Shown: positions 34,177-58,669, counted from the first letter of the stretch. The stretch is 64,000 nt of DNA from a virus (IMGVR_UViG_3300034061_004620); one strand, 5' to 3'. The notes: generated from the letters alone by a model not told the origin. Numbers and translations: made by a program.

Positions 34177-34190
34177 AAGTAATTTATATG
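34174..34190. promoter_or_regulatory. Overlapping divergent late-type promoters between two start codons 11 bp apart
   Basis: Plus strand TAAGTA-6 nt-ATG (terL); minus strand TATAAATT-4 nt-ATG (HNH). Confidence 0.55.
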
Positions 34191-36304: not shown

Positions 36305-36310
36305 TACATT

Positions 36311-37762
36311 ATGCGTGAATTAGATAAAATATCAGCTGCTTTATTTGACAAAATACGTGCTCGCTTTGATCATGTGAATATTGGCGACGAAAATGCCCAA
36401 AGAGTTACAGACCCAGAAAAAGCAAGATTTCTAAATTTTGATTACATCAGCGAAGATGGTGAGAATTTTGGTAATGTTACTATCAGTCTAATAGATGAAG
36501 ACAGTTTAAAAATCTACTTTGGCGCAAATATTACCGAAGCACTGGACGAAGAACAAGAAACAGAATGGTATAAATTTTTGCGTGGGCTCCGCGAGTTTGC
36601 AAGACGTAACATGTTGAATTTTGATGTTAGGGATATTAATCGTAGTAATTTAGATCTTAAAGACATTAAACAACAGAGTGTATCAGACGCCACTTACGAT
36701 AAAGAAGAATTGGCCATTGCCGAAGGAAGATTGTACGGACACGGCAATAACCGCAGAGTAAGTTTCGGTGATGTAGGCGAACACAAACTTATTATCAAGC
36801 ACAGAGATCAAATTGATCCAGAACGGCACGGTGCAAGAGCCAGACAAATAGAACATGTGTTCATCGAAACTCCAGTTGGAGAAAGATTCCTATTAGATCA
36901 TACCAATTTACATGGTGCCAGAGCTACAGCCAATCATTTACGCCACGGTGGTAACATTGGCGACGAAGGTAGTCAATTAATTAACGAAATGGTCAAAGAA
37001 ATGGCCAGCATGCGCCATTTTGTGCGTTCGATGAAAAATAGAACATTTGAAGATGCTGAAACTTCGGGCATGGTGGAAGCAGCCATTTATCGCTACAACG
37101 AAGTTAAAAATAATTTGAAACGTTTTCAAGGTCGAAAAGGCCATGAATTACTAATAGACATGTGTGATCGCCGTTACAATGACATGGACGAAACAGTGGA
37201 TGTAGACTCATTGCGCGAGCGTTTTGTGAAGAAAATTTACGATGATAGGTTCAACGAAGCACTACCATATGTTTATCGTGCATACAAAAACAAACAAAAA
37301 ATGGACACACCAATGACAGTGGAATTTGAGTCTTGGGCAAATGAAATTACTGAACAGACTTGGGATGAGGATAATGACGATAGAGATGAACAAGATTTAA
37401 CAGTGCTCATGCAAACTCCTATCGCAGTAGGTGTAGATGCATCAGATGGTATAGCTGCTATTTCTAACATCAATTTTTTACAAGACGATGAATTAAAACA
37501 AGCACTATTAAAATTGAGTCAGGTTCAAGGTCCAGATGCTGATGCAAGACGTACAATAGTTGGCTGGCTGGCTGCAAATGGAGAAACTGCATTAGCGAAC
37601 CAATTTATGCAAGTACTACAACAACAAAATACTAACACACAGCCAGCACCACAGCAACCGGTTCCACCACCTCAACCAGTAGGCGCAACCACAATGGATC
37701 AACCGGTAGTACAAGAAGATTTAGGATTTTTACGCAAGTTGGCAGGTTTGGTTAAAAAATAA
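36311..37762 (+). CDS. Conserved hypothetical late protein ending in VVQE-DLGFLRKLAGL
   Basis: 483 aa; late promoter; C-terminal LxxLAG motif shared with the putative head proteins. Confidence 0.65.
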   Translation: MRELDKISAALFDKIRARFDHVNIGDENAQRVTDPEKARFLNFDYISEDGENFGNVTISLIDEDSLKIYFGANITEALDEEQETEWYKFLRGLREFARRNMLNFDVRDINRSNLDLKDIKQQSVSDATYDKEELAIAEGRLYGHGNNRRVSFGDVGEHKLIIKHRDQIDPERHGARARQIEHVFIETPVGERFLLDHTNLHGARATANHLRHGGNIGDEGSQLINEMVKEMASMRHFVRSMKNRTFEDAETSGMVEAAIYRYNEVKNNLKRFQGRKGHELLIDMCDRRYNDMDETVDVDSLRERFVKKIYDDRFNEALPYVYRAYKNKQKMDTPMTVEFESWANEITEQTWDEDNDDRDEQDLTVLMQTPIAVGVDASDGIAAISNINFLQDDELKQALLKLSQVQGPDADARRTIVGWLAANGETALANQFMQVLQQQNTNTQPAPQQPVPPPQPVGATTMDQPVVQEDLGFLRKLAGLVKK

Positions 37763-37773
37763 TAAATTTATTA

Positions 37774-37822
37774 TTGACTTGCTAAATACAATTGTTATAC
37801 AATTGCACGGTGCAGTTGTATA
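37774..37822 (+). promoter_or_regulatory. Dual promoter and hairpin upstream of gp32
   Basis: TTGACT (37774)-18 nt-TACAAT; TAAATA 37783-37788; 12-bp hairpin 37796-37822. Confidence 0.6.
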
Positions 37823-37863
37823 TCCAGGCACAAACATTATGGCATTTTATAAGGAGAAACATT

Positions 37864-38865
37864 ATGGCCACATCTTTAGCAGAAATTCGCGCTAAACTTC
37901 AAGCGCAAGAGAACCGTTCGCAAGGCGGACAATCACAAGGCGACAACGCCATCTATGCACACTGGAACATTCCAGAAGGCTCAAGTGCAAAAATTAGATT
38001 CCTACCAGACGCTAACACACAGAACTCATTCTTCTGGGTTGAGCGACTGATGATTCGCCTGCCGTTTGCAGGCATCAAAGGACAATCAGATTCAAAACCA
38101 GTTGTGGTACAGGTACCTTGCGTAGAAATGTATGGTGACGCCTGTCCTATTTTGGCAGAAGTACGTACTTGGTTCAAGGACCCAGGACTTGAAGAAATGG
38201 GTCGTAAGTACTGGAAAAAGAAAAGTTACTTGTTCCAAGGCTTTGTAAGAGAAAATCCATTGGCGGATGACAAAACACCTGAGAATCCTATTCGTAGATT
38301 CGTTATTAGTCCCCAGATCTTTAATTTAATCAAGGCTGCACTTATGGACCCAGAATTAGAAAGCATGCCAACTGATTACACCGCTGGTTTGGATTTTACT
38401 GTGACAAAAACTTCTAAGGGCGGCTATGCAGATTACAGCACCAGTAAGTGGAGCCGCAAAGAGACTGCGCTGAACGCACAAGAACAAGGTGCAATTGACA
38501 GCTTTGGTCTTTATAACTTAAGTGACTTCTTACCCAAGCGTCCAGGTGAAGTTGAACTAAAGGTGATCAAGGAAATGTTTGAAGCAAGTGTGGACGGCCA
38601 AGCATATGATCCAGAGCGTTGGAGTCAATATTTCAAGCCCAGCGGCTTTCAAACAAAAGGCGGTGACGATACAGAAAATACTTCGGCATCTACACCTGCT
38701 GCCAAAACAGCTCCTGCTCCCGTTCAATCTGCTGCACCAATTGATGCCGATGAGGAAGATGACGCACCAGTGGCAACTGCACCTGTGCAAGCCTCTGCTG
38801 CCAAACCATCAAGTCAACGAGCTGAGGATATCTTGGCTATGATTAGGAACCGTAGCAAGCAATAA
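37864..38865 (+). CDS. gp32: Single-stranded DNA-binding protein, T4 gp32-like
   Basis: Start MATSLAEIRAKL after SD AAGGAG; IRFLPD, CPIL, RKYWKKKSYL, DYSTSKW. Confidence 0.92.
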   Translation: MATSLAEIRAKLQAQENRSQGGQSQGDNAIYAHWNIPEGSSAKIRFLPDANTQNSFFWVERLMIRLPFAGIKGQSDSKPVVVQVPCVEMYGDACPILAEVRTWFKDPGLEEMGRKYWKKKSYLFQGFVRENPLADDKTPENPIRRFVISPQIFNLIKAALMDPELESMPTDYTAGLDFTVTKTSKGGYADYSTSKWSRKETALNAQEQGAIDSFGLYNLSDFLPKRPGEVELKVIKEMFEASVDGQAYDPERWSQYFKPSGFQTKGGDDTENTSASTPAAKTAPAPVQSAAPIDADEEDDAPVATAPVQASAAKPSSQRAEDILAMIRNRSKQ

Positions 38866-38872
38866 GGTAAAA

Positions 38873-39481
38873 ATGTTATCACAACTTGATAACATCATTT
38901 TTCCAGATCGTTGTGATGTGCTTGAAATAGTGCCATCACAACGATATGTCTATCCTATATACAAAAACGGAAGTAGCAGTTTATATAGTTCAGGATTCAG
39001 ACTCGTGAATAATGATGAGTTAAAGCATATACCTGTAATCGATATCTATGTTCGTAATCCGTACGATCGTTTTGTTACTGGTGTAAATACCTTCTTAAAA
39101 CATAATTCCAAATTAGATAGAGAAACTGCATTACACTTTGTAACTAATTATCTGTTTTTGAATAGACATTTTTGCCCGCAGTTTTATTGGTTAGTTAACC
39201 TACAACGATATACTGATGCAAAGATTAAAATTAATCCAATTGAGTCTTTGGCAGAAGTAACATCACTAAAATATAATGTCACCGAAGATTCTAAGTTAGA
39301 TGAAATTCTTAGTACAGACAAATTACATTTTTATTTGTCAATTGATAAAGTTTTGACAGAAGATTTATTAGGAAAAACTGTGCCATTCAACTTGATCCTT
39401 AATACCATAAAACATAGATATACTGAAATTTATAATGAAATAATTCAACGGAGTATTGACGTATGCAATGTCCTCGCTTAG
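38873..39481 (+). CDS. Sulfotransferase-family (Sulfotransfer_2-like) protein
   Basis: PIYKNGSSS (5'-PSB-like), VRNPYDRFVTG (3'-PB-like), HFCPQ. Confidence 0.6.
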   Translation: MLSQLDNIIFPDRCDVLEIVPSQRYVYPIYKNGSSSLYSSGFRLVNNDELKHIPVIDIYVRNPYDRFVTGVNTFLKHNSKLDRETALHFVTNYLFLNRHFCPQFYWLVNLQRYTDAKIKINPIESLAEVTSLKYNVTEDSKLDEILSTDKLHFYLSIDKVLTEDLLGKTVPFNLILNTIKHRYTEIYNEIIQRSIDVCNVLA

Positions 39482-40410
39482 ATCATTTTGTAAGATTCAA
39501 TTCAAATGGTACAGTTAGTAGATGTGGACATATGACCAATGCTCCGCAGTTTGATACCTTACGTGAAATGGAAGACAGCTCATGGTTACTTGGTGTAAAG
39601 GCCGAATTAGAATACGGAAATTGGCCAAAAGAATGTGTGCGTTGCCAAGAAACTGAAAATATTAACAATACCAGTATAAGGCTCAATGCAATTAAATTGG
39701 ATCAAATACAAACAAAGTCAGATTATTTAATAGTAGGTGGGATTCTTGATAATACTTGTAACAGTGGTTGTTTTACATGTGATGAGACATATAGCACCAA
39801 GATTGGTAGTTTAAAATCTCGTGTATATCCTATAATAAACAATTCTAATAAATTCTGGAACTTACCCTTAGACCGAATAGTTCATTTAGACATCAACGGT
39901 GGCGAACCAAGTGCAAGTAAAAATTACAAAGAAATATTACAAAATCCTCCGTCAAATGTAAAATCAATTAGAATTAACACAAACGGATCAATTGTTATTG
40001 ATGAAATAAAACAGCTTATTGACAAAGGAATAAAGGTTACTGTGACAGTTAGTCTTGATGGTATCGAAGAGGTACATGATTTTGTACGTTGGCCCATTAA
40101 ATGGGATAAGTTTTATTTAAACCTAATGCATTATAAGGCAATCGATAAATTAGAATTGAATACATGGACAACTGTGAGTGCATTAAATATTGGTAATTTT
40201 TTAAAAATTAAAAAGTTTGTAACAAAATATCAAATTAATCATTCTTATGCATTTTTACAATATCCAGAATCAATAAATGTTAAGTATAAAAATAATCTAA
40301 CATTACCTTATAAAAATATTTTTCCAAATATAGTAGCTATTGATAAAGAAAATCAAATTGATCTTGATGAATTCATAATGAAACAAAAAAAATTGCGTAA
40401 CCTGCAATAA
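39463..40410 (+). CDS. Radical SAM protein with N-terminal twitch/SPASM-like Cys cluster
   Basis: CNSGCFTC, NGGEP, NTNG; N-terminal CPRL..SRCGH..CVRC. Confidence 0.85.
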   Translation: MQCPRLDHFVRFNSNGTVSRCGHMTNAPQFDTLREMEDSSWLLGVKAELEYGNWPKECVRCQETENINNTSIRLNAIKLDQIQTKSDYLIVGGILDNTCNSGCFTCDETYSTKIGSLKSRVYPIINNSNKFWNLPLDRIVHLDINGGEPSASKNYKEILQNPPSNVKSIRINTNGSIVIDEIKQLIDKGIKVTVTVSLDGIEEVHDFVRWPIKWDKFYLNLMHYKAIDKLELNTWTTVSALNIGNFLKIKKFVTKYQINHSYAFLQYPESINVKYKNNLTLPYKNIFPNIVAIDKENQIDLDEFIMKQKKLRNLQ

Positions 40411-40434
40411 TTTTTAGGAATTATACAAACTAAA

Positions 40435-40983
40435 ATGAAAATAGCAATAACTGGTTATAGTGCAGGCATTGGGCAAGCATTAGCAAAAATTTACCAACAG
40501 CAAGGACACGAAATCATTGGCCTTAGTAGACGTAATGGATATAATATCAGAAGCATCAATAAAATTGTTGCTATGGTTGAACACTGCGATATTTTTATTA
40601 ATAACGCCCAAGTAGGCTTCGCGCAGACAGAGTTGTTGTTTGCTATCTATAAGTTGTGGCATAACCAAAAAGATAAATCAATTATTAATATTAGCTCGAT
40701 GCTTACATCTTTTCCTGTATGCACACTGCCAGGAATCGAAATGACGGAATATTTTGTGCAGAAGAAATCTCTTGAAGAAGCTATTTCACAACTAAGAAAT
40801 TATCAAGCCTGGCCAAAACTTTATTTAATTAAGCCTGGTGCAGTAGCAACACAACCAGGACAGACTGATTGCACATCATATGCCAATGTAGATGAATGGG
40901 CTATTCAATTGATAAAAATTTTAGATGCTGGTCCTACCTTAGATGTTTGTGAAATAGCATTGGGTGTAAATTATGGACAGTAA
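40435..40983 (+). CDS. Short-chain dehydrogenase/reductase (compact)
   Basis: ITGYSAGIG, FINNA, IINISS, YFVQK (YxxxK). Confidence 0.85.
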   Translation: MKIAITGYSAGIGQALAKIYQQQGHEIIGLSRRNGYNIRSINKIVAMVEHCDIFINNAQVGFAQTELLFAIYKLWHNQKDKSIINISSMLTSFPVCTLPGIEMTEYFVQKKSLEEAISQLRNYQAWPKLYLIKPGAVATQPGQTDCTSYANVDEWAIQLIKILDAGPTLDVCEIALGVNYGQ

Positions 40984-42121
40984 AGAATATTTAACTAATC
41001 GTAACTTTTGCCCAATGCCGTGGACTGGATTAATGTATAATTTTGACGGTACAGTTAAAAATTGTATAAGAAGCTCAGCACCAATTGGTAATATACAAGA
41101 AAAGTCAATTGAACAAATTATTAATAATAATACAAATATCCACACTCGATCAGAAATGATTGCAAATAGGCCTGGCCCAAATTGTAATCCTTGTTATGAA
41201 TTAGAGAAAACAAAGAATAAATTTGATATAATAAGTGATAGAGTTTTTTATTTAAAAGAATTAAAACAAGTGCCAATGAGCACATATGAGCAGACACAAA
41301 ATTTTGACTTACATACAATTGACGTTAGATGGACAAATTTATGTAATTTTGCATGTGTTTATTGCGGCCCAGAATTTAGCAGTAAATGGGCCAGTGAATT
41401 GAATGAGCAGTTACAAGTGCCAACAGATCAAGCCAAAGAAAATTTTAAAAGTTTTGTCTTATCTCGCACAAAAAATTTAAAACATGTATATCTCGCCGGC
41501 GGCGAACCATTACTCATGAAAGAAAACTTGGAGCTATTGGAAAAATTATACATAGAAAATCCTGAAGTAAACCTAAGAATTAATACAAATTTAAGTAAAG
41601 TAGATACCAGTGTATTTGATCAAGTGTGCAAATTCAAAAATGTGCATTGGACTATTAGTGTTGAAACAATAGATAAAGAATACGAATATATTAGGTACGG
41701 TGGTAGTTGGACCGACTTTGTTGATAATTTAGCTGTGGTCAAAAGTTTAAATCATAAAATAACGTTCAACATGTTATATTTTTTATTAAATTATAGTTCA
41801 ATATTTGATTGTATAGAATATCTTCAGCAAATGGGATTTCATAATAACAGTTTTGTTATAGGAGCTTTAATTGGACCTGCTTTTTTTGACGTACGGCATT
41901 TACCAGGCAGCGTTTTAAACGACGTTGCTAAAGAGCTTGAAATTCGAATTTCACAATCACCAAAATTTTTACTTGAAAATAGTTACCAAAACTTATTACA
42001 ATACATAAAAAAACCAATGAACAAAGATTTAAAAAATTCCTTTACAATGATAAAAAATATTGATAAACGACGAAATCTAAACAGCAAAGACATTTTTCCA
42101 AAATTGTATGCTTATGAATGA
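40973..42121 (+). CDS. Radical SAM protein with N-terminal twitch domain
   Basis: FCPMPW..DGTVKNC..CNPC; CNFACVYC; AGGEP; NTN. Confidence 0.9.
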   Translation: MDSKEYLTNRNFCPMPWTGLMYNFDGTVKNCIRSSAPIGNIQEKSIEQIINNNTNIHTRSEMIANRPGPNCNPCYELEKTKNKFDIISDRVFYLKELKQVPMSTYEQTQNFDLHTIDVRWTNLCNFACVYCGPEFSSKWASELNEQLQVPTDQAKENFKSFVLSRTKNLKHVYLAGGEPLLMKENLELLEKLYIENPEVNLRINTNLSKVDTSVFDQVCKFKNVHWTISVETIDKEYEYIRYGGSWTDFVDNLAVVKSLNHKITFNMLYFLLNYSSIFDCIEYLQQMGFHNNSFVIGALIGPAFFDVRHLPGSVLNDVAKELEIRISQSPKFLLENSYQNLLQYIKKPMNKDLKNSFTMIKNIDKRRNLNSKDIFPKLYAYE

Positions 42122-43286
42122 TATAAAATCAATTGGGTTTGCATTAGATCCCAATAATATACCTGCATTTCTATTAGATTGGGAGCTTACAAAACTTTGC
42201 AATTTAGATTGTAGTTATTGTGGAGTTGGCATAGAATGGGGAGGTCATGACAATAACACAAAGCATCCGGCAAAAAAAGAATGTTTTGACACTATAGATT
42301 TTATGTATGCCTATGTTGATTTATATATGAAAAATAAGAAACCAAGTCAACGCAAAGTTATTCTTAATGTTTACGGCGGGGAAAGTTTATTTCATCCAGA
42401 TATTGTAGAAATTTTGCATGAATGCAGAAATAGATATCAAATATATAAAAATAATTGGCATCTTACAATTACTTGTACAACTAATGGGGTGGTAGGATTC
42501 AATAATTGGAGACGAATTGTTCCCTTAATTGATGAATTTACTGTGAGTTATCACTCAGAGAATTTACCTAAGCAAAAACAACAATATAAAGATAATATTT
42601 TGTTTCTTAAGAAACAAAATAAAAGGTTTAAATGTGTAATTATGATGCATAACAATAAGGAATTATTTGAAGATTCTGAATCTATAGCTCAGTTTTGCAA
42701 CACACACGGTATTCGCTACGTGCTAAAGCCTTTGGATAATACCGGAGACGAATGGAAATATTCTATAGATCAATTTGAAAAAATGAAAACTTTTTGGATT
42801 AATACTGTGCCTGAATCCAAAAAAGATAATAACCGTAAAATTTTTCAAATTTTAAATGAAGGTACAAAGGTATCAAGTATACACGAAGGACGGGCTTGCT
42901 GCGGTGGAAGAAAATTAAGTATTAACAGCGATCTTAAATCAAATGTAACATATGTACCAAAACAAGGATTTCGAGATTGGTACTGTAGTGTAAATTGGTT
43001 TTTTCTATTTGTACAACAATTAACCGGTAACATTTATACAAATAAAGATTGCCGTACAAGTACAACTGGTCGGGTAGAACCATTGGGAAATTTAAGGTCA
43101 ACTAAAGAATTATTGGATAATGTAAAAACACAACTTGACAATCACTCTATGCCTGTTATAAAATGTGTAAAAGATATTTGCCAGTGTGGCTTCTGTGCTC
43201 CAAAAGCAGATAACATGAAAGATTATAAAGAATTATTTGATAGACAATTAGACAAGGAAAAATATCATGGCAACCAAACCCTTTGA
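42108..43286 (+). CDS. Radical SAM protein with C-terminal SPASM-like domain
   Basis: CNLDCSYC, YGGES, TTNG, SYH; C-terminal CCGG..CSVNW..DC..C..ICQCGFC. Confidence 0.9.
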   Translation: MLMNDIKSIGFALDPNNIPAFLLDWELTKLCNLDCSYCGVGIEWGGHDNNTKHPAKKECFDTIDFMYAYVDLYMKNKKPSQRKVILNVYGGESLFHPDIVEILHECRNRYQIYKNNWHLTITCTTNGVVGFNNWRRIVPLIDEFTVSYHSENLPKQKQQYKDNILFLKKQNKRFKCVIMMHNNKELFEDSESIAQFCNTHGIRYVLKPLDNTGDEWKYSIDQFEKMKTFWINTVPESKKDNNRKIFQILNEGTKVSSIHEGRACCGGRKLSINSDLKSNVTYVPKQGFRDWYCSVNWFFLFVQQLTGNIYTNKDCRTSTTGRVEPLGNLRSTKELLDNVKTQLDNHSMPVIKCVKDICQCGFCAPKADNMKDYKELFDRQLDKEKYHGNQTL

Positions 43287-44337
43287 TGTATCAAAATTTC
43301 GCAAAAGTATTACAAAAAGTATTGACGGTATCTCAGTTGGATTCAACGACCCAACAGATTGGATCAGCACAAACAACTACGCTCTTAACTATCTTATATC
43401 TGGAGACTTTAACAAGGGTATTCCAATGGGAAAGGTCACTGTATTTGCTGGCGAATCTGGTGCGGGCAAATCCTTTATCTGCTCAGGAAATCTTGTCAAG
43501 AACGCTCAAGAACAAGGTATCTATGTTATACTCATTGACACCGAAAACGCTCTTGATGAGGCTTGGTTACACGCACTCGGAGTGGATACTGCTGAGGACA
43601 AACTACTTAAACTTAATATGGCAATGATTGACGATGTGGCCAAAATGATTACTGAGTTTGTAAAAGAATACAAAACACTACCGGAAGACCAACGTCCCAA
43701 GGTGTTAATCGTGTTAGACAGTTTGGGCATGTTGCTCACCCCAACTGACGTAAATCAGTTCGAAGCAGGTGACTTGAAAGGTGACATGGGCCGTAAGCCC
43801 AAAGCACTGACTGCCTTGGTTCGTAACTGCGTTAACATGTTTGGCAGTTTAAATATTGGTCTGGTAGCAACCAACCATACCTATGCCAGTCAGGACATGT
43901 TTGATCCTGATGACAAGATCTCAGGTGGTCAAGGTTTTATCTATGCAAGTTCTATTGTAGTCGCTATGCGTAAGTTAAAGTTAAAAGAAGACGAAGATGG
44001 TAATAAAATTAGCGAAGTAAAAGGTATTCGTGCAGCATGCAAGATCATGAAAACACGTTATGCTAAACCGTTCGAATCAGTACAGGTCAAGATCCCTTAC
44101 GAACAGGGAATGAATCCATACTCTGGATTAGTTGACATGTTTGAAGGAAAAGGATTATTACAGAAAGAAGGTAATAGTCTTAAATACACCTTAGCAGATG
44201 GCACTGTAATTAAGCAGTTTCGTAAGGCCTGGGAGCGTAACGAAGGTGGCAGTCTTGATAGTGTAATGACTGACTATACTGCCAATCCACATCAACATCT
44301 TGCCGCAGAACACCAAAATACAGTAGATGATGAATGA
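43267..44337 (+). CDS. uvsX: RecA-like recombinase UvsX
   Basis: FAGESGAGKS (Walker A), IDTENA, LDSLG, NHTY, SGG.GF.YASS. Confidence 0.95.
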   Translation: MATKPFDVSKFRKSITKSIDGISVGFNDPTDWISTNNYALNYLISGDFNKGIPMGKVTVFAGESGAGKSFICSGNLVKNAQEQGIYVILIDTENALDEAWLHALGVDTAEDKLLKLNMAMIDDVAKMITEFVKEYKTLPEDQRPKVLIVLDSLGMLLTPTDVNQFEAGDLKGDMGRKPKALTALVRNCVNMFGSLNIGLVATNHTYASQDMFDPDDKISGGQGFIYASSIVVAMRKLKLKEDEDGNKISEVKGIRAACKIMKTRYAKPFESVQVKIPYEQGMNPYSGLVDMFEGKGLLQKEGNSLKYTLADGTVIKQFRKAWERNEGGSLDSVMTDYTANPHQHLAAEHQNTVDDE

Positions 44338-45022
44338 GCTTAATTTGGTCAGCTCGGCAACTGTAACTAAACATAATCCTATAGTCAAAGTTAGGCCTTA
44401 TGTGCCATGTTTACAAATTGAGTGGATGATAAGTAAACGTTGCAATTTTGATTGTAGTTATTGTCCTCCAATTTGGCACGATAAAACTTCTAAGGACTTA
44501 ACATTAGATGAATTAAAAAATGCCTGGCTAAAAATTATAAAAGTATCAGAACACAAAACAGAACAAAAAATTCATTTAACAATTTTAGGTGGCGAGCCAA
44601 GTTTAAATAAAAATTTATTACCTTTTTTGCAATGGGCAAGAAATAATTTTTCAGATAGAATAGGTCAAATTGGCACTATTACTAACGGAAGTGCTAATTC
44701 AAATTTTTACACAGAATTAGTTAGTTATTGCGATTGGGTGACATTTTCTACTCACAGTGAGTTCATGAATGAGAGAAAATTTTTTAGAAACGTAATCAAA
44801 GCACACCGAGCAAGTAAAAAAAAGAATGCAATGGTAATGGTCAATTTGATGCAAGAATCATGGTTCAATGAAAGAATACATTTGTATCAAAAATTTTTAA
44901 ACAAATTTAATATTGCTAATTATATGCATCAAATTGAATATAACGAAGGATTCAACGAATTTAACGGAAAACGTGCAGATGTAAAACCGGTGAAATTAAT
45001 AAAAAAAATGAAATTTATATGA
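44327..45022 (+). CDS. Radical SAM core protein (no auxiliary domain)
   Basis: IEWMISKRCNFDCSYC, LGGEP, ITNGS, FSTHSE. Confidence 0.85.
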   Translation: MMNELNLVSSATVTKHNPIVKVRPYVPCLQIEWMISKRCNFDCSYCPPIWHDKTSKDLTLDELKNAWLKIIKVSEHKTEQKIHLTILGGEPSLNKNLLPFLQWARNNFSDRIGQIGTITNGSANSNFYTELVSYCDWVTFSTHSEFMNERKFFRNVIKAHRASKKKNAMVMVNLMQESWFNERIHLYQKFLNKFNIANYMHQIEYNEGFNEFNGKRADVKPVKLIKKMKFI

Positions 45023-45348
45023 CAACACTAACTAAAGATCACCATTGTAATGCAATAGTTACTCTACGTGACGGTACTGAAATTGAAGTTTTTGCTAATC
45101 AATTGTTAGACAAAAATCTCCATCATTGGAAAGGTTGGTATTGTCACGCCGGAGTTGATAGAATTGTAATTAATGATGATTTTAGTGTGCATAGCGGAAG
45201 ATGTTTAAACGATCATCTTGGCAATTTATTAGACGACAATTTTAAACTTTTTACAGAACCCACAATATGTCGTCAACAAGAATGTTCAATATGCCACGGG
45301 GATTTGTATGTTGAAAAAAAACTTGATTGGAAAAAGGATGAAATATGA
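45019..45348 (+). CDS. Stand-alone SPASM/twitch-like Cys-rich protein
   Basis: WYCHAG..I.D..V.SGRC..LGNL..PTIC..CSIC; overlaps the stop of the rSAM core gene (ATGA). Confidence 0.7.
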   Translation: MTTLTKDHHCNAIVTLRDGTEIEVFANQLLDKNLHHWKGWYCHAGVDRIVINDDFSVHSGRCLNDHLGNLLDDNFKLFTEPTICRQQECSICHGDLYVEKKLDWKKDEI

Positions 45349-45566
45349 GCATTGATGTTGAAGTTTTGATTGAAACTTATATAACGTTAAAAGAATACGT
45401 TCCTGCCAAAGAACGACAAGCAGCGGCTGATAACTTAGTAAGTATGCTTGTTGATAATCTGAGCGACAAGGAACTGAGAGAATTTGGCGGTGCTGATAGT
45501 TACACCAAGCGAGCACTGGAAGAATATCTTGACGACGAGGACGACGAACTTGATTACGAAGAGTAA
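45345..45566 (+). CDS. Conserved small acidic phage protein
   Basis: 73 aa, SD AAGGA, acidic tail; lies between the uvsX and uvsY regions. Confidence 0.7.
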   Translation: MSIDVEVLIETYITLKEYVPAKERQAAADNLVSMLVDNLSDKELREFGGADSYTKRALEEYLDDEDDELDYEE

Positions 45567-46018
45567 TGTGGTATAATCGTGTTGTGGCAGATCTTGGCGA
45601 GATTCCGGCCTTCATTGATTATTATGAAGGCGAACTCGCACAGGCAAAAACAGAAACATACATACGAGGTAATGTCGAAAAGTCCGCTGCGAATCTACCG
45701 GGTATTACAGAGCACCGATTTAACCAGCTTCAGGAGATCGAGGCTGTACTTAACTATCTTAATATACAACTTCGCAAGATTAGACGAAAGCATTTTCAAA
45801 AATACTTGGAATCTTATGCCCGAGCTCTTACAAGTCGCGACGCTGAGAAATATACAGATGGTGAGGACGAAGTCATTGACTTTGAAACTATCATTAACGA
45901 AGTTGCTTTGCTTAGAAACAAATGGCTTGGAGTTATGAAAGGTTTAGAAAGTAAAAATTTCATGTTAGGACATGTGGTAAGACTGCGTACAGCCGGGATG
46001 GAGGACATTTCGGTTTGA
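45566..46018 (+). CDS. uvsY: Recombination mediator UvsY
   Basis: KYLESYARALTSRDAEKY.DGE..INEVALLRNKWLG.MKGL..K..LRTAGMED. Confidence 0.8.
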   Translation: MWYNRVVADLGEIPAFIDYYEGELAQAKTETYIRGNVEKSAANLPGITEHRFNQLQEIEAVLNYLNIQLRKIRRKHFQKYLESYARALTSRDAEKYTDGEDEVIDFETIINEVALLRNKWLGVMKGLESKNFMLGHVVRLRTAGMEDISV

Positions 46019-46269
46019 TAAATTACAAGGAACGGGCAGAACAAATATTACGAGAATGGGCATTATGCTCAAATGCCCGTCCCAAGTATAACGCTGTAGA
46101 CATACAAATTGAAAAAGATACGTGTGGTCGTTGGGCAACTAATCTTATCCATAATTTAAATTGGGGATCAGAAACTGAACTTGCCGAGGCTTGTAATCAA
46201 CTTGAATCAAGATTAAAACCTTTAAAAGAAAAAATAATTATTGAGGTAATACAAAATGGTGCAATTTAA
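46015..46269 (+). CDS. Hypothetical protein (84 aa)
   Basis: Coupled ORF with overlaps on both sides. Confidence 0.6.
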   Translation: MINYKERAEQILREWALCSNARPKYNAVDIQIEKDTCGRWATNLIHNLNWGSETELAEACNQLESRLKPLKEKIIIEVIQNGAI

Positions 46270-47017
46270 AAATGCATTCGAAAGTCATCAACATAGTTTA
46301 CAAACATTGGATCTACTTTATGGATACGATAGCTTTTTAGATAGTTTGGAATTTGTGGCTGACTTTGGTTGTGGCGCTGGATTAGACACAAAGTGGTGGG
46401 CTACATTAGAAACCAGAGATGATCCCCCAGAATCAAGAAATTATAAGACCTATGCAGTTGATATCAATAAAAACATTATTGATCCCGGGTTATCTCAATT
46501 AGAAAATGTATACGTTGTTAATGAAGATTTTGATACAGCTGATTGTCCAATTTCAAGAAGTGTTGATCTCATTTGGTGCCATAATGCTTTTCAGTATGTT
46601 ACCAATCCTCTATCGACCCTTCGTACTTGGAATTCTCAATTGGTGCCCGACGGGATGCTAATTCTAATTTTTCCGCAGAACAGTCACTACTCCTATAATA
46701 GATTAAACAATCATAGCTATAATGGTTGTTACTACAATCATAATCTTGTAAATTTAATATACATGTTGGCAGTCAACGGATTTGATTGTAGAGATGCGTA
46801 TTTTCTTAAAGAGGAAAACAATCCATGGCTACACGCTGCTGTATACAAATCAAATATTGCACCAATGGACCCAAAGAAAACAACCTGGTTTGATTTAGCA
46901 GATCTTAACTTGATTAATGACAGCGTGATTGATAGTCTTAATAAATTCAGCTATGTTAAACAAGAAGAAATTATTACAACTTGGCTTGATAAAAATTTCC
47001 ACTTTCCAAAAGAATGA
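46256..47017 (+). CDS. Class I SAM-dependent methyltransferase
   Basis: VADFGCGAG, AVDIN, DLIWCHNAFQY, L.PDGMLIL. Confidence 0.8.
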   Translation: MVQFKNAFESHQHSLQTLDLLYGYDSFLDSLEFVADFGCGAGLDTKWWATLETRDDPPESRNYKTYAVDINKNIIDPGLSQLENVYVVNEDFDTADCPISRSVDLIWCHNAFQYVTNPLSTLRTWNSQLVPDGMLILIFPQNSHYSYNRLNNHSYNGCYYNHNLVNLIYMLAVNGFDCRDAYFLKEENNPWLHAAVYKSNIAPMDPKKTTWFDLADLNLINDSVIDSLNKFSYVKQEEIITTWLDKNFHFPKE

Positions 47018-47793
47018 AAATAGTATTGGTTACTGGTGGATTTGATCCAGTACACTCTGGACACATATCTTATCTCAATCATGCTGATCACTTAGGCGAT
47101 TGGCTAATTGTTGGTTTAAATTCAGACGCCTGGCTTGCACATAAAAAAGGTAAACCATTTATGTCATGGCATGAGCGCATGACAATTCTTGACAATCTAC
47201 ACATGGTAGATCGTGTAATTGAGTTTGATGACCGTGACGGCACTGCATGTGATGCTATACGCAAGGCAAAAGAAATGTTCCCCAACGATACTATTATTTT
47301 TGCCAATGGTGGTGACAGAAATCAAGACAATATTCCTGAAATGATTTTTGATGATGTAGAATTTGTTTTTGGAGTAGGTGGAGAGGACAAAAAGAACAGT
47401 AGTAGTGATATTCTCAAGCGATGGACTTCTACGGAAGTACAGAGAAAATGGGGATCGTACACAGTATTAAACGAAATACCAGGCGCAAAAGTTAAAACTT
47501 TAAGAGTTGATCCAGGTCAAACTCTCAGTATGCAAAGACATCAGTATAGAAGTGAATACTGGATGGTTACAGAGGGCACTTGCATGATCAATATGGCCAT
47601 GCCCGGCGATTTAGATAACCCACCTAAGATCTTGGGAAAATATGACGAATGGCGTGTACCACGCAATGCCTGGCATCAACTTACTAATCCGTTTACAAAA
47701 CCTTGTACCATTGTAGAAATTCAGTATGGAGACCGGTGCGAAGAAGAAGATATCGAACGATTAGATGACGCCGGTCAAACAACGCAAATATAA
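47014..47793 (+). CDS. Cytidylyl/adenylyltransferase (HxGH) fused to a PMI type II-like cupin
   Basis: TGGFDPVHSGH..GLNSD..FANGGDR..K.NSSS; then RKWGSY..KVKTL.V.PGQTLSMQRHQYRSEYW..IVEIQYG..EEDIERL. Confidence 0.85.
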   Translation: MKIVLVTGGFDPVHSGHISYLNHADHLGDWLIVGLNSDAWLAHKKGKPFMSWHERMTILDNLHMVDRVIEFDDRDGTACDAIRKAKEMFPNDTIIFANGGDRNQDNIPEMIFDDVEFVFGVGGEDKKNSSSDILKRWTSTEVQRKWGSYTVLNEIPGAKVKTLRVDPGQTLSMQRHQYRSEYWMVTEGTCMINMAMPGDLDNPPKILGKYDEWRVPRNAWHQLTNPFTKPCTIVEIQYGDRCEEEDIERLDDAGQTTQI

Positions 47794-47836
47794 ATCTGTT
47801 TGTCTTTGTCTGTATTCTATAATTGCCTGTATAATT

Positions 47837-48001
47837 TTACGCATTTGATTTCCAGTCCCTGTGATTTTGATATGTGTACTGTTGTAACCAATGTTCAACA
47901 TCAGCGGCATTTTTTGGATTTTTTGATTCGATGTATTGTTCAACATCGCTTTTATAAGCGAAACAGTTTTGTAAACGTTTCATTAGACTTTGGCAGTCCA
48001 T
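47837..48001 (-). CDS. Small hypothetical protein (54 aa)
   Basis: Start MDCQSL after SD AAGGAG and TAAATA (48032-48027); YIESKNPKNAADVEHW. Confidence 0.65.
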   Translation of the reverse strand: MDCQSLMKRLQNCFAYKSDVEQYIESKNPKNAADVEHWLQQYTYQNHRDWKSNA

Positions 48002-48069
48002 TTGATCTCCTTGTGGGTTATATGAGTATTTATTGCAACGCAACAAACATTAACATATTACAAATTCAA

Positions 48070-48075
48070 TAAATA
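48070..48075 (+). promoter_or_regulatory. Late promoter TAAATA, near-leaderless
   Basis: 7 nt before ATG 48083, no SD. Confidence 0.65.
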
Positions 48076-48082
48076 GCTTATT

Positions 48083-49546
48083 ATGCGTGATTTATTAAAC
48101 ATTATTTTAAACGAAGTTACACTTAGCAAATACGGCCCTGGACATAAATTTATTTTTAGTAACGGTGCCGCTGGGCAACAGCTGGCCAGTCAATTGGCCG
48201 CTTTGGGTTTAAACACAGATGGCGTCATTGAACTTACAAATAAATCTAAAGGCCTTGAATCCTTAGTAAACAAAAGCGATATAATAACAAGATTTGGTAA
48301 AGGAACAGATGTATATGAATTTCGTACCGAAGACGATGTGTATTTTTACGTGTTTGGAACCACAGGCACCATTGAAACAGCATTAAATCACAGCAAAGAA
48401 AGTGCCATTAGCAATCGCGGCGAAGTAAGCGAAGGTATTCTTGGTGCAGCTATGTTTGCTAAATTTACCAAACGCCAACCAGGCGAAGAAGTAGGCCAAG
48501 TTACCTCTGCAGATATCACTGGTGTATTAGATGCTCTACAATCGCAAGGCGAAGATACTTATAGTGTCACCGTTAATGATGCTGAAAGCGAAATAGCAGA
48601 TACTATTAGTTTTGTTTTGAGATTAAAAACAGCCCCGTACCAAGATCTTATGAATCCGTTAAAGCGTAAGCTTTTGACCAACGAACTGAACAGTGCCGCA
48701 GCGTATGTTAACAGTGCAATGGCCGAACGCTATAGCAAGTATTTTTATATTAATGGCAAGGCAGATGAAATTAATATCATGGCCGATGGTGCTGCCAGCG
48801 AGTCTGAAAAGAAATCAGATGTCTGGGTAGGCATTAGAGATCAAAATGGAGCAATACGTACTCTCAAACTTAATGCCAGTTTAAAAGTTGGCGGGCAAGC
48901 ACAATTTGGACAAGTTGGCGGCAGTGACACAGAGTCAATGACCAAGTTGTTTGGTTATTTTGGAATCGATGTTGCTCCGTATATTGAAAAATTTGAAAAG
49001 CAACACAAACAAGATCCACTAAAAGCGGTGGAGTATATGTATAGACAGATCACCAATGCTTTGCAATCAAAGTTATCAGGGGACGACGACACTGAAGAAG
49101 CACGATTCGTTGATAGTGTTGCTCGCGCGGTAACACATTTTGCTACACTGGGTGATAGCAATGTTGAATTGGTTGATTTTGACAAGGGTGGTTTTAAGAT
49201 TTTGAGATTTAAAAATCTCGAGTATAAGTTAAGAAATATTGATTTGACTGCGTCATATGTTTCATCTAAAACAAGACCCGAAATTAGTATTCACGACGTG
49301 GAAGATCCTAAAAAAGAACTTATTTCTATTCGTTGCAAAGTTGAACATAAAAAAGCAGGACCGTATGTACGCAACTATATCGAAAAAGGTTCTTTATTAG
49401 AGGAAATTACCAAAGTTCAAGAAAGAAGTTTTAAAGAATTAGAAACTCCTGATCCAGAGAAAACAAGGGTAAAAATTAAGCCACCTGGTAGACAAGCCTT
49501 ACCTCGAGACAAAGATACAACTCCAAGACAAAAACGCGATAAGTAA
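48083..49546 (+). CDS. Putative PD-(D/E)XK (restriction-like) nuclease with CTS-like leader MRDLLNIILNE
   Basis: NRGEVSEG helix, KSDVWV..ASLK strand pair, basic C-terminal tail. Confidence 0.45.
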   Translation: MRDLLNIILNEVTLSKYGPGHKFIFSNGAAGQQLASQLAALGLNTDGVIELTNKSKGLESLVNKSDIITRFGKGTDVYEFRTEDDVYFYVFGTTGTIETALNHSKESAISNRGEVSEGILGAAMFAKFTKRQPGEEVGQVTSADITGVLDALQSQGEDTYSVTVNDAESEIADTISFVLRLKTAPYQDLMNPLKRKLLTNELNSAAAYVNSAMAERYSKYFYINGKADEINIMADGAASESEKKSDVWVGIRDQNGAIRTLKLNASLKVGGQAQFGQVGGSDTESMTKLFGYFGIDVAPYIEKFEKQHKQDPLKAVEYMYRQITNALQSKLSGDDDTEEARFVDSVARAVTHFATLGDSNVELVDFDKGGFKILRFKNLEYKLRNIDLTASYVSSKTRPEISIHDVEDPKKELISIRCKVEHKKAGPYVRNYIEKGSLLEEITKVQERSFKELETPDPEKTRVKIKPPGRQALPRDKDTTPRQKRDK

Positions 49547-49550
49547 AAAC

Positions 49551-50399
49551 ATGCAAAGACCTACTATGGAAATAACAACCATGATTGGTTGTTCCTTGAT
49601 GTGCAATTTTTGCCCTCAAGACAATTTACGAGACATGTATGGTAACGATGTCAAATACATGACTTTGGATACATTTAAAACAGCATTATCAAAAGTACCA
49701 AAAAATACCAGAATTGATTTTAGTGGCATGGCCGAAGCCTGGATCAATCCTGCGGCCACTGACATGTTAGAACATACTTTGGTATCAGGACACAATGTAG
49801 CTATCTATACAACTTTTTACAATTGGGATATTGGGACTGCTGAACGTGTTGTGCAGTTACTTTATCGTTATCGAGCACAGATCGAAGTACTTAGTGTGCA
49901 TTTTCCTGATGAATACGGTAATATGAAGGGATGGAAATATAGCACTGAATGGGAAGCTGTATTTCACATGGTAACCTCTGCGGTACAAGATGCTAATATT
50001 AAATTAGAAGCTATGACCATGAGCGATCATGGTAAGATACATAAGGATTTGCAGCATCTTGGGATCCAATTGTACAATTGGTTTGGGCACGACCGTGCTG
50101 GAAGTTTGAATAAAGAACAAGTTAAAGAACAACCAGTTCATTTTGTTACTAAACACGAACGCCCGGTGAGTTGTAGTAAGACTGTGAATTATGATCAACA
50201 CGTACTGCTACCCAATGGTGATGTAGTATTATGCTGCATGGATTATGATCTAAAACACGTGATTGGTAATTTGGTTAACGATTCCTATTTGGATTTGTTC
50301 ACCGGTGAACCCATGATAAATCTAATACGAGAAAATCAAAAAAATTGCTACAGTGCGGCAAGTTTATGTAAAAGTTGCACTGATGCTAAAATACATTGA
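49551..50399 (+). CDS. Radical SAM protein with C-terminal SPASM domain
   Basis: CSLMCNFC, FSGMAE; CSKT..LPNGDVVLCCMDY..IGNL..CKSC. Confidence 0.9.
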   Translation: MQRPTMEITTMIGCSLMCNFCPQDNLRDMYGNDVKYMTLDTFKTALSKVPKNTRIDFSGMAEAWINPAATDMLEHTLVSGHNVAIYTTFYNWDIGTAERVVQLLYRYRAQIEVLSVHFPDEYGNMKGWKYSTEWEAVFHMVTSAVQDANIKLEAMTMSDHGKIHKDLQHLGIQLYNWFGHDRAGSLNKEQVKEQPVHFVTKHERPVSCSKTVNYDQHVLLPNGDVVLCCMDYDLKHVIGNLVNDSYLDLFTGEPMINLIRENQKNCYSAASLCKSCTDAKIH

Positions 50400-50424
50400 C
50401 TTAACTGATCAAATATTATATAAT
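50396..50424 (+). promoter_or_regulatory. Sigma70-type promoter
   Basis: TTGACT-17 nt-TATAAT; ATG 5 nt after the -10 box. Confidence 0.85.
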
Positions 50425-50429
50425 CAACT

Positions 50430-50609
50430 ATGACAAAAATTTATCTGGCCATGGCCGAAATGCAAAACGGCAACCGTATCTTTGAACGTGCATATCTTAC
50501 TCAAGAGCGTGCCGAGCAAGCGTGTCAAGAGATGATAAAAGATATTACGGAAAACACTGACTGGAAAGTTGTTCCTGTTGTTGAAGAGTTGGAGTTAGTT
50601 GATGAATGA
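50430..50609 (+). CDS. Small hypothetical early protein (59 aa), missing from the ORF track
   Basis: MTKIYLAMAEMQNGNRIFERAY..LELVDE, behind the promoter and overlapping the next start. Confidence 0.65.
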   Translation: MTKIYLAMAEMQNGNRIFERAYLTQERAEQACQEMIKDITENTDWKVVPVVEELELVDE

Positions 50610-50874
50610 GCGAATCCAAGAAACTTTAGATATTTTGCAAGAAGAGTGTGCCGAAGTTATTGTTGAGATCAGCAAATGTAGAAGATTTGGATTAGATTCG
50701 TATCATTACAAAACTGGAGTTAAACATCGTGACATGCTTGAAATGGAAATTGGTGATGTTTTAGCAATGGTTGATATTTTAATAGAGCATAACTTTATAG
50801 ATCAAGATAAACTTAACAACGCCAAGGAAAATAAAAGAAATAAATTAAAGACCTGGTCTAACATTTTTAAATGA
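50602..50874 (+). CDS. MazG-like nucleotide pyrophosphohydrolase
   Basis: LQEECAEV..LEMEIGDVL (ExxE/ExxD). Confidence 0.8.
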   Translation: MNERIQETLDILQEECAEVIVEISKCRRFGLDSYHYKTGVKHRDMLEMEIGDVLAMVDILIEHNFIDQDKLNNAKENKRNKLKTWSNIFK

Positions 50875-51683
50875 TCACTCGCATAATGATGATAGGTGCT
50901 GGTCGCATATACGAAGCGGCATGCACCTTGAGTTTTGATAAAAACTTGCATCCAACAATTGACCAGACCATAATTGTAAGTCCGTATAGTTTTGTTACTT
51001 TAACAAAAGAGTTTGAACATTTTGGTGTTGATGTATCAAAATTTAAATTCTATCATGACAACGAGGTAATAGACAAATTTAATTTACAAGCATGGGCAAC
51101 AAATCATTGGTATTTACAGCAGGGATTTAAACTAAGTCTGATGGATAGCATTGATAGCGACTTTTTAATTCAAGATTGCGATGTTCTTGCATTACAACCG
51201 TATCAATATATTCTTGATAATGATATAAATTTTAGAGTAGAAGATTTATGGAATCCTTATCAACAAGTTTATGCTGATGCAATAAAAAAATTAATTGGGT
51301 TTGATAGAGCTATAAATTACAGCTTTGTGACAGAATTCATGCCCTATAAAAAGCAAGATTGGATAGCTTGTAAAAACCAAATTGAAAATTTTACTCAATC
51401 AACATGGCAAAATGCAATAACAAATTTAGCACCGTTTGATGAAAAAAAATGGTTTAGTGAATATGAATTGTTGGGAATTTTTAAAACAAATACAGATACC
51501 AATTATAAACTAAGATATGATATTCAACCAATTATTAACAATTGGGAAGATTTTTTCCGTGCAGACTGGTCAAATATCGAAACAATAAAATTTAAGGCAC
51601 AACCTTTTAAATATATGGGACGGAAGTCCGCAATAACAATACGAGATTTTTTTATTAGGAAAGATGATGACAGAATTATATAG
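50871..51683 (+). CDS. Hypothetical protein, possibly glycosyltransferase-like (DUF6492-like)
   Basis: WYLQQGFKL..LIQDCD..SEYELLG pattern; DxD-like motif. Confidence 0.45.
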   Translation: MITRIMMIGAGRIYEAACTLSFDKNLHPTIDQTIIVSPYSFVTLTKEFEHFGVDVSKFKFYHDNEVIDKFNLQAWATNHWYLQQGFKLSLMDSIDSDFLIQDCDVLALQPYQYILDNDINFRVEDLWNPYQQVYADAIKKLIGFDRAINYSFVTEFMPYKKQDWIACKNQIENFTQSTWQNAITNLAPFDEKKWFSEYELLGIFKTNTDTNYKLRYDIQPIINNWEDFFRADWSNIETIKFKAQPFKYMGRKSAITIRDFFIRKDDDRII

Positions 51684-56675: not shown

Positions 56676-56703
56676 AGGTGTCCTTGAAAATCATTGAGTA
56701 AGG

Positions 56704-56721: not shown

Positions 56722-56726
56722 TTGAC

Positions 56727-58660: not shown

Positions 58661-58669
58661 GGATCAATT

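Follow-up and report, generated by a model that had tools for sequence, protein, structure and literature searches.

Why would a phage place radical S-adenosylmethionine (SAM) enzymes among the genes of its own recombination machinery? This question is raised by IMGVR_UViG_3300034061_004620, an uncultured freshwater (lake) jumbo phage of ~346 kb (the E protein described below was found on a contig of that size), of which a stretch of 64,000 nucleotides (nt), in the following called the window, was analyzed. In the region from 38873 to 50399, the five radical SAM enzymes B, D, E, F (with its small companion G) and M, a sulfotransferase-fold protein (A), a short-chain dehydrogenase/reductase (SDR; C), a methyltransferase (J) and a nucleotidyltransferase fusion (K) stand together with gp32, uvsX and uvsY. 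A preliminary description had proposed that they form an uncharacterized, phage-encoded multi-step tailoring pathway. The comparison with related phages reveals that the stretch consists of separable accessory cassettes, which are located in fixed slots of a conserved terminase-gp32-uvsX-uvsY backbone. The enzymes are phage-encoded, uncharacterized and all intact, with the predicted catalytic residues being kept at 50-60% identity, whereas the idea of one single unit does not hold, since the modules vary independently. As to their function, we regard the chances that the cassettes serve the tailoring of nucleotide sugars or glycans as about even.

The cassettes became visible in two scans. The first, seeded by D, yielded 114 confirmed loci in IMG/VR, out of which 80 were kept. 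B, C, D and uvsX are found together in about 76 of the 80 kept loci, at least 60 additionally have gp32 and A, and the order gp32-A-B-C-D-uvsX is recurrent. The median identity to the window is 59% for D, 53% for B, 50% for C, 38% for A and 81% for uvsX. To avoid the bias of a D-seeded search, a second scan was seeded by uvsX. Here, the slot between gp32 and uvsX could be assessed in 72 loci and is empty (<400 nt) in 41, holds A-B-C-D in eight (about 11% of the sampled relatives), E alone in three, and other inserts of 0.4-3.3 kb in 20. Between uvsX and uvsY, 56 of 71 loci have no insert, 12 have other inserts of >700 nt, and three have F+G. K is near-universal in the clade and follows uvsY in most uvsX-sampled loci, and copies of M with 71-74% identity occur in one subclade of the relatives. 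E is located after D, before A, or alone, and A-B-C-D is kept as a unit or in the permuted order C-D-A-B (L044, L075), in both cases at 30-60% protein identity. The blocks A-B-C-D, E and F-G as well as J, K and M are gained and lost independently among the relatives. Moreover, gain, loss and replacement of the cassettes are uncoupled from the divergence of the flanks: identity of D and identity of uvsX are uncorrelated (Spearman rho 0.02, n=78), and in locus L097 gp32, uvsX and uvsY are 94%, 97%, and 97% identical, respectively, yet A is 56% and D 60% identical. Taken together, the pattern is the signature of recombination anchors, formed by conserved genes, for variable cassettes, and it resembles O-antigen and capsule loci. 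There, too, conserved flanks enclose AT-rich variable cassettes of sugar-tailoring genes, the alleles of which are replaced independently of the flanks. Unlike in those loci, the flanks are here essential phage recombination genes and the cassettes mostly encode radical SAM enzymes, and the likeness is therefore an analogy of architecture and not homology.

Some relatives carry other genes at these positions. Unrelated inserts in the gp32/uvsX slot were seen in L133 (2369-5582), L126 (2063-3863), L101, L108, L111 and L147, and one alternative insert is a four-gene cassette with an SDR gene first, followed by genes of three proteins of 264-326 amino acids (aa) without Pfam family. An optional open reading frame (ORF) of 181 aa, which is not present in the window, lies between B and C in L060 (8938-9483); similar B/C gaps exist in L011, L014, L017, L021, L053, L058 and L062-L064. 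By eye, its HxD...H pattern makes it a candidate for a 2-oxoglutarate-oxygenase- or cupin-like protein. Furthermore, a scan of genome contigs for cellular homologs returned two loci. One of them, L083 (PBLX01000007.1, labelled as a Legionellales metagenome-assembled genome (MAG)), harbors terminase, gp32, A-D, uvsX and uvsY at 45-79% identity in 2700-12930. It was rejected as a cellular homolog, since a 42-kb contig with the full phage backbone is a phage contig that was binned with a bacterium, and the binning is at most a weak hint to the host.

Table 1. Predicted genes and operons in and around the cassettes, ordered by position in the window
Feature	Position	Strand	Assignment	Evidence or remark
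gp32	37792-38865	+	gp32-type ssDNA-binding protein; conserved left flank of slot 1	phrog_1192 1.6e-70
A	38873-39481	+	minimal 202-aa sulfotransferase-fold protein	fold and motifs, no Pfam match
B	39463-40410	+	radical SAM, N-terminal twitch-like 4-Cys domain	PF04055 26.1 bits
C	40435-40983	+	short 182-aa classical SDR	adh_short 26.0 bits, just under the 26.6 cut-off
D	40973-42121	+	N-terminal-twitch radical SAM	PF04055 65.5, SPASM/twitch (PF13186) 29.4, NF033640 264.6 bits
E	42108-43286	+	radical SAM, C-terminal 8-Cys domain	PF04055 26.7 bits
uvsX	43267-44337	+	uvsX recombinase; conserved flank between slots 1 and 2	phrog_97 1.5e-68, RecA 53 bits
F	44327-45022	+	radical SAM core, 231 aa, N-terminal half of split E-like enzyme	PF04055 29.5 bits
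G	45019-45348	+	109 aa, Cys-rich, putative auxiliary-cluster half of F	position, conserved Cys
H	45345-45566	+	73-aa acidic backbone protein	no family match
uvsY	45566-46018	+	uvsY recombination mediator	phrog_231 9e-15
I	46015-46269	+	84-aa ORF, variable	no family match; minority of relatives
J	46256-47017	+	class I SAM-dependent methyltransferase	PF08242 36.9 bits (cut-off 30)
K	47014-47793	+	cytidylyltransferase-like + PMI-type cupin fusion	PF01467 52.1 bits (cut-off 21), PF01050 80.8 bits (cut-off 23.6)
L	48083-49546	+	487-aa protein	phrog_3560 5e-31 (family of unknown function); no Pfam/NCBIfam match
M	49551-50399	+	compact 282-aa radical SAM, C-terminal SPASM	PF13186 38.2 bits
NDP-sugar operon	52467-56675	-	convergent, ~2 kb downstream	4,6-dehydratase, transketolase-like pair, FkbM methyltransferase, epimerase/reductase, GT34
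GT17 gene	56694-57560		divergent	beside NDP-sugar operon

The cassettes are tightly joined to the backbone. Neighboring genes overlap in slot 1 by 19 (A/B), 11 (C/D), 14 (D/E) and 20 nt (E/uvsX), from uvsX on by 11 (uvsX/F), 4 (F/G), 4 (G/H) and 1 nt (H/uvsY), and after uvsY by 4 (uvsY/I), 14 (I/J) and 4 nt (J/K); gaps of 7 nt (gp32/A), 24 nt (B/C) and 4 nt (L/M) and a larger one of 289 nt (K/L) separate the others. The overlaps of a few bases with the core recombination genes, which the preliminary description had reported, are found at E/uvsX, uvsX/F, H/uvsY and uvsY/I, and it was also right in describing the enzymes as more AT-rich than gp32 and uvsX: the guanine-cytosine (GC) content of A, B, D, E and F is 0.296-0.312, that of gp32, uvsX, and uvsY is 0.451, 0.412, and 0.413, respectively. 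D has a lower GC content than uvsX in 67 of 67 relatives. The same sequence was detected in lake and freshwater metagenomes (Logan contigs; 20 data sets from 15 studies), and error-free contigs of another lake metagenome (run X3) bridge 38313-40447 (gp32-A-B), 40422-43311 (C-D-E-uvsX) and 44788-45631 (F-G-H-uvsY). The junctions are therefore real DNA and no assembly chimera. In four metagenomes the summed contig depth rises 5- to 50-fold only in the cores of gp32, uvsX and uvsY (37781-38270, 43661-44150 and 45621-46110), where the contigs break, and the depth of the cassettes is that of this strain. The peaks arise because the cores are common, at ≥90% identity, to many co-occurring relatives, and numerous related phages thus live side by side in the same lakes. 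Judged from the gene overlaps alone, the cassettes are probably co-transcribed with gp32, uvsX and uvsY. A scan for sigma-70-type promoters was uninformative (70 sites versus 68.7 expected from shuffled sequence), the window contains the T4 late motif TATAAATA a single time, outside the region 38873-50399, no clear intrinsic terminator was seen within 38.8-50.4 kb, and no RNA run was listed as containing the 6.5-kb stretch or D alone.

What kind of enzymes do the cassettes encode? The CxxxCxxC enzymes that had been assigned to 39463, 40973, 42108, 44327 and 49551 are all present as ORFs with these starts, and a six-frame pattern search of the 64-kb window found the motif once each in B, D, E, F and M and in-frame in no other real gene. 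The remaining matches are off-frame ORFs or belong to an HNH-like ORF of 186 aa (33646-34206, minus strand). The latter lies opposite the start of the terminase gene, has an HNH-like context of its Cys motif, and may be a homing endonuclease. Domain scores and Cys patterns also bear out the three architectures that had been distinguished (N-terminal twitch, C-terminal SPASM and split): B and D have an N-terminal twitch domain, E and its split paralog F+G a C-terminal Cys-rich domain, and M a C-terminal SPASM domain. The gathering cut-off of PF04055 (29.5 bits) is reached by D and F, B and E are just under it, and M has no PF04055 row at E≤0.01; for B, D, E and F there are PHROG matches to radical SAM families. 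The cut-off of PF13186 (21.5 bits) is passed, with conserved Cys, by the N-terminal domain of D and the C-terminal domain of M, and E and G have conserved Cys clusters without a PF13186 match. Invariant are C13, C31, C71 and C74 (twitch) as well as C124, C128 and C131 (SAM cluster) in D; C3, C21, C58, C61, C99, C103, C106 and a GGEP motif in B (49 sequences); the eight C-terminal Cys of E; and C42, C62, C84, C89 and C92 of G.

F and G are joined by an ATGA overlap and lie in different frames. The same split is found in the relatives L029, L036 and L074 at 36-40% identity and with differing overlaps, which argues that F+G is a genuine two-gene enzyme and not the product of a frameshift error. 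The reading as a split enzyme is based on the location of G, its conserved Cys and the recurrence of the two-gene arrangement; a BLAST comparison of G with the C-terminus of E was not significant. E and F share 25% identity over 163 aa of the radical SAM core, and B and D 26% over 252 aa. Judged by its domain scores, D is a bona fide member of NF033640 (N_Twi_rSAM; cut-off 170 bits), which it matches end to end (model positions 2-396 of 398) and with which it shares the domain order, a twitch/SPASM-like domain with four Cys preceding the CxxxCxxC core. B has a 4-Cys N-terminal domain like D and reaches 117.2 bits, which places it, as a diverged paralog of D, outside NF033640 by the curated rule.

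None of the five enzymes maps to MoaA, NrdG, QueE, viperin or a sulfatase maturase. The preliminary description had considered a housekeeping identity as MoaA, NrdG or QueE; the best scores are 40.7 versus a cut-off of 284 bits for MoaA, 32.7 versus 131 for NrdG2 and 31.7 versus 260 for QueE (all QueE models 26-32 bits, cut-offs 206-300), all of them under the equivalog cut-offs. Likewise, F, D, and E reach 54.6, 37.5, and 26.6 bits, respectively, with the viperin model NF038283 (cut-off 180). With the model of the anaerobic sulfatase maturase (anSME; TIGR03942, cut-off 349) B reaches 19.4 bits, and D does not appear among the listed matches. The automatic label "AslB" (anSME), which JGI gives to many homologs, is generic. 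No NCBIfam family is near its cut-off for E. Searches with the AlphaFold model of D (pLDDT, the predicted confidence score, 88.8) retrieved BlsE (Z 12.0), MoaA (11.5), CteB (11.4), PFL-AE (11.2), anSME (11.1) and SkfB (10.9); the best rows lie within one Z unit and are thus tied, so that the structure search does not separate the substrate class of D. The family itself is very large, with 3,762 homologs of D in a collection of 5.8 billion sequences and 8,882 clusters of N-terminal-twitch radical SAM proteins at E≤0.001 in a representative library, and the searches made returned no named function for it. The phage copies of the NF033640 type form a large clade of their own with 50-77% mutual identity.

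N_Twi homologs also stand in rows. Rows of five to ten radical SAM genes including several of the N_Twi type were seen in the bacterial or metagenomic loci L084 (a Bdellovibrionales MAG; 829-21196), L089 (GCA_027401895.1; 164-15736) and L180, and appear to be an uncharacterized class of multi-radical-SAM clusters related to the phage cassettes. A Bdellovibrionales MAG has an N_Twi gene (389.7 bits) that is, similar to D, directly followed by an E-like gene (1e-32), with a NodU-like carbamoyltransferase gene nearby. In the relative L178 (G001 126000-141414), three or more N-terminal-SPASM radical SAM paralogs (439, 403, and 487 aa; 6086-15406, minus strand) are arranged in tandem and adjoin an SGNH/GDSL gene and a 144-aa P-loop ORF. 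The latter matches APS_kinase with 39.8 bits, above the Pfam cut-off and over the N-terminal part of the model only, so that its reading as such is weak; a match to this family was found in this one relative, and in the window nothing was significant (E 0.66). Fused proteins of 790-1106 aa with two or three N_Twi modules exist as well. Together with the tandem array they show that N_Twi modules work in series, whatever the substrate may be, and they point away from the sugar reading given below.

The partner genes named before, an SDR, a methyltransferase and a nucleotidyltransferase, were confirmed by family scores and motifs, and the gene at 38873 is sulfotransferase-like as far as fold and motifs go. 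In A, K31 (KNGSSSL), R61 and S69 (RDPxxRxxSG), and H99 are invariant or nearly so among 39 homologs. The motifs with K31, R61 and S69 resemble the loops that bind the 5'-phosphosulfate and 3'-phosphate of 3'-phosphoadenosine 5'-phosphosulfate (PAPS). With the AlphaFold model of A (pLDDT 90.8), the 17 best rows out of 48,161 PDB chains are all sulfotransferases, at modest Z scores of 3.1-5.6 and with heparan-sulfate 3-O-, 6-O-, N- and 2-O-sulfotransferases on top. Among the Swiss-Prot AlphaFold models, CHST8, 9, 11 and 14 follow at E 0.03-0.1, a Foldseek search against the PDB gave no row at E≤0.001, and PF03567 is found on 14% of the members of the Atlas look-alike cluster of A. By its motifs, C is a classical SDR with cofactor motif and N-S-Y-K tetrad: T6, G7, G11 and G13 (TGxxxGxG), Y106 and K110 are invariant in 56 sequences, with S87 and N57 conserved at ≥90%. 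Motif I (DxGxGxG), D69 and D104 are invariant in J, and so are H14, G16 and H17 (HxGH) and H176, E181 and H221 of the cupin in K. As K reaches 77.7 bits with the model of RfaE domain II (cut-off 181.5), it is no RfaE/HldE equivalog.

Taken together, which substrate could such a set of enzymes act on? The preliminary description had left the choice between glycan, nucleotide and peptide; the context points towards sugars. The tailoring of sugars is suggested by the domains of K, the fold of A, the adjacent nucleoside diphosphate (NDP)-sugar operon and glycosyltransferase (GT) genes, the likeness of the D twitch to that of BtrN, the neighbors of distant homologs, and a fusion of an M-like protein with FkbM. 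The NDP-sugar operon is kept in L060, L063, L064 and L079 at 74-79% identity, its transketolase-like thiamine-diphosphate enzyme has the pyrimidine-binding and the PP-binding half encoded as separate genes, and it could encode a pathway for a branched-chain or otherwise unusual sugar. In the neighborhoods of distant N_Twi homologs, an NTP_transferase gene heads a run of about ten radical SAM genes, another homolog has a DegT aminotransferase, a further radical SAM enzyme and a phosphomannomutase (PMM) as neighbors, and a third adjoins a UDP-glucose/GDP-mannose dehydrogenase gene; the NodU-like carbamoyltransferase gene near the N_Twi gene of the Bdellovibrionales MAG belongs to this sugar context as well. 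The sole homolog of M in an isolated phage (Synechococcus phage DSL-LC02, 31% identity) forms the C-terminal portion of a protein of 717 aa that carries the annotation FkbM methyltransferase and is encoded between a mannosyltransferase gene and a second FkbM gene among tail-fiber and collagen-like genes. The twitch domain of BtrN, the 2-deoxy-scyllo-inosamine dehydrogenase, aligns with residues 11-86 of D (E ~1e-3), but it is C-terminal in BtrN and N-terminal in D, and the similarity of the cores is at superfamily level only. AprD4, a radical SAM diol dehydratase, is among the fold matches of D (Z 8.5). BtrN and AprD4/AprD3 are radical SAM enzymes of aminoglycoside pathways that act on sugar-like rings, and the likeness concerns a possible way of working and not membership. 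AprD4/AprD3 combines a radical SAM enzyme with an NADPH reductase, a pairing that B or D plus C resembles.

In the scheme that we propose, unusual sugars would be built and decorated by the cassettes, the adjacent NDP-sugar operon and the glycosyltransferases. K would activate a sugar phosphate, the radical SAM enzymes would carry out oxidation, epimerization, deoxygenation or C-C chemistry on the sugar, and C would reduce the keto intermediate so formed. A would then add sulfate from PAPS and J methyl groups, and phage glycosyltransferases would move the product inside the cell, most likely onto virion proteins. Recombination between the conserved flanks could swap cassette alleles between co-infecting relatives and in this way diversify the product in the fashion of an O-antigen locus. 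We infer every chemical step of this scheme as well as the acceptor. An intracellular acceptor would fit, since those ORFs of 36.3-60.1 kb that were scanned gave no match to a flippase, polymerase or exporter family; a match to the GT2 family (PF00535) was also not found in the contigs of four relatives. Several points weigh against the sugar scheme. None of these enzymes has an assigned reaction, virion proteins as acceptor are a guess, A has no direct Pfam sulfotransferase match besides its modest Z scores, and A-B-C-D and K do not strictly co-occur, so that a shared pathway is not required. Sugar enzymes were present in only three out of 11 distant-homolog contexts, six of which are short or uninformative contigs. 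Moreover, the structure of D ties enzymes acting on sugars or nucleosides with peptide-modifying ones, and long arrays of radical SAM paralogs are typical of peptide natural products and not of known sugar pathways.

The last two points lead to a doubtful, though still the best, alternative, which is the post-translational modification of a virion protein or another phage protein. The radical SAM enzymes would then introduce epimerizations, cross-links or C-methylations, A would be a protein (Tyr) sulfotransferase, and J would methylate the protein. The SPASM/twitch subgroup consists mostly of peptide maturases, CteB, SkfB, SuiB and anSME are structural neighbors of D (Z 10.7-11.4), and besides the mentioned arrays of N_Twi homologs, one homolog that is fused to tetratricopeptide repeats and another one beside a gene of the Asp/Arg-hydroxylase type (Asp_Arg_Hydrox) hint at protein substrates and are thus further points against sugars. 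Tyrosylprotein sulfotransferases are also among the fold matches of A (Z 2.6), but the best matches are carbohydrate sulfotransferases. No obvious precursor peptide had been noticed at the outset, and this was confirmed, as no conserved small ORF lies inside or beside A-B-C-D in the ~90 loci compared; H and I are outside of A-B-C-D, contain no Cys and occur independently of the cassette. Furthermore, no NCBIfam model of maturases of ribosomally synthesized and post-translationally modified peptides is near its cut-off for the five enzymes, and an SDR and a sugar nucleotidyltransferase would have no obvious role in protein modification.

Hypermodification of DNA or nucleotides is unlikely. Here, a base of the genome would receive during replication a group, which may be a sugar or side chain with sulfate or methyl, that protects it against host nucleases, and this would account for the diversifying, swappable alleles. 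It would suit the packing of the genes with gp32, uvsX and uvsY, and patchy presence and allele replacement fit a trait of an arms race. In T4, genes for beta-glucosyltransferase and dCMP hydroxymethylase are neighbors of uvsX, and both the hypermodification of thymidine and 7-deazaguanine pathways involve radical SAM enzymes. A small ORF near the end of the plus-strand gene string (50599-50874) is, by its sequence appearance, a MazG-like candidate and would fit as well. However, among the families matched by the ORFs scanned in 36.3-60.1 kb there is no base hydroxymethylase, DNA glycosyltransferase, 5-hydroxymethyldeoxyuridine kinase or deazapurine enzyme, the scores with the QueE models are far under the cut-offs, and GT34 and GT17 are families of glycan and protein glycosylation. 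Since most close relatives do not have A-B-C-D, base modification would moreover have to be optional between near-identical backbones.

It is equally improbable that no common pathway exists and that the genes are independent AT-rich morons at recombination-prone junctions with targets such as lipids, cofactors, host metabolism or anti-defense. Each module varies independently, other relatives have unrelated inserts in the same slots, and as many as 12-13 PF04055 matches per 140 kb are found in relatives. On the other hand, A-B-C-D occur together, in the same or a permuted order, at 30-60% identity, which argues for one pathway within that cassette, and the functional classes are coherent with sugar tailoring. 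Least probable of all is a special form of the DNA-modifying idea, in which A-B-C-D with J and K would put a sulfated, radical-tailored sugar or side chain on the phage's own replicating DNA as a new, cassette-encoded and swappable hypermodification that diversifies under the pressure of host restriction and defense, even if it would account for the position of the genes within the gp32-uvsX-uvsY operon, into which they are fused, and for alleles that are exchanged while the flanks stay almost identical.

How does the sugar scheme compare with known systems? Mycobacteriophage virions as well as chlorovirus and mimivirus glycans are examples of viral glycosylation, in which viruses use their own NDP-sugar enzymes and cytoplasmic glycosyltransferases. 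The predicted NDP-sugar enzymes and glycosyltransferases of our phage are its likeness to these viruses. To our knowledge, the known systems have not been described to use radical SAM or sulfotransferase enzymes. In the literature, no paper was found on the cassette, the slots or the partners, none that joins radical SAM enzymes with uvsX and gp32, and no relevant one that links nucleotide sugars to twitch domains. A T4-like marine genome of 183 kb has been reported to contain 12 radical SAM genes and Fe-S (iron-sulfur) assembly genes, to be compared with 12-13 PF04055 matches per 141-145 kb in relatives of our phage; the passages concerned deal with gene counts and Fe-S supply and, as far as these passages go, not with cassette structure, slots, sulfotransferase or SDR partners, or a sugar context (Nishimura et al., 2017; PMC5332604).

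The phage itself belongs near cultured jumbo phages without having a close match among them. Its uvsX is 66-68% identical to that of the jumbo myoviruses Atu_ph07, Phosso, XbC2, CBB, GAP32 and Vibrio phage 2.275.O, and in such Rak2/GAP32/Atu_ph07-type jumbo phages the backbone does not have the inserts. Atu_ph07 and Vibrio phage 2.275.O have the order terminase, hypothetical protein, gp32 homolog, uvsX with an empty gp32/uvsX gap, and in the latter uvsY directly follows uvsX. Near-identical DNA was not found among cultured phages, the D gene is absent from cultured phages, with RsoM2USA (24.6%) as the sole weak tblastn match in 50,697 phage records, and E gave weak partial matches only. Two related IMG/VR contigs of 141-145 kb, to which the count of PF04055 matches given above refers, are rated ~40% complete. 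In the window, the plus strand from 34188 to 52507 is an unbroken string of abutting or overlapping genes, closed by a DUF2452 protein gene (51998-52507, 29.1 bits) and followed by a candidate bidirectional hairpin terminator (52528-52550) between the convergent operons. H was matched by tblastn in 30 out of 80 D-found loci and is present in most uvsX-sampled loci. Further downstream (57605-60076), a gene for a PstS phosphate-binding protein (PBP_like_2, 130 bits) directly precedes one for a phosphate-selective OprO/P porin (171 bits), implying that the host is Gram-negative and that phosphate is limiting.

Virus-encoded tailoring genes and a catalogued, uncharacterized radical SAM family have thus been known already, whereas the well-defined genetic architecture and the small, tractable set of enzymes are unusual. 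For the very large N-terminal-twitch family, abundant lake phages offer a compact and conserved set of partners, consisting of a sulfotransferase-fold protein, an SDR and a second radical SAM enzyme, in a defined slot, and the four genes A-B-C-D are a small system that enzymologists could reconstitute. The locus also bears on the question of why the genomes of some jumbo phages encode oxygen-sensitive Fe-S enzymes by the dozen. Moreover, essential recombination genes can act as fixed anchors for the swapping of accessory biosynthetic cassettes, which is the equivalent, in phages, of loci of the O-antigen type. Should virions or DNA be decorated by the product, freshwater ecosystems would have a new axis along which the surfaces or genomes of phages diversify.

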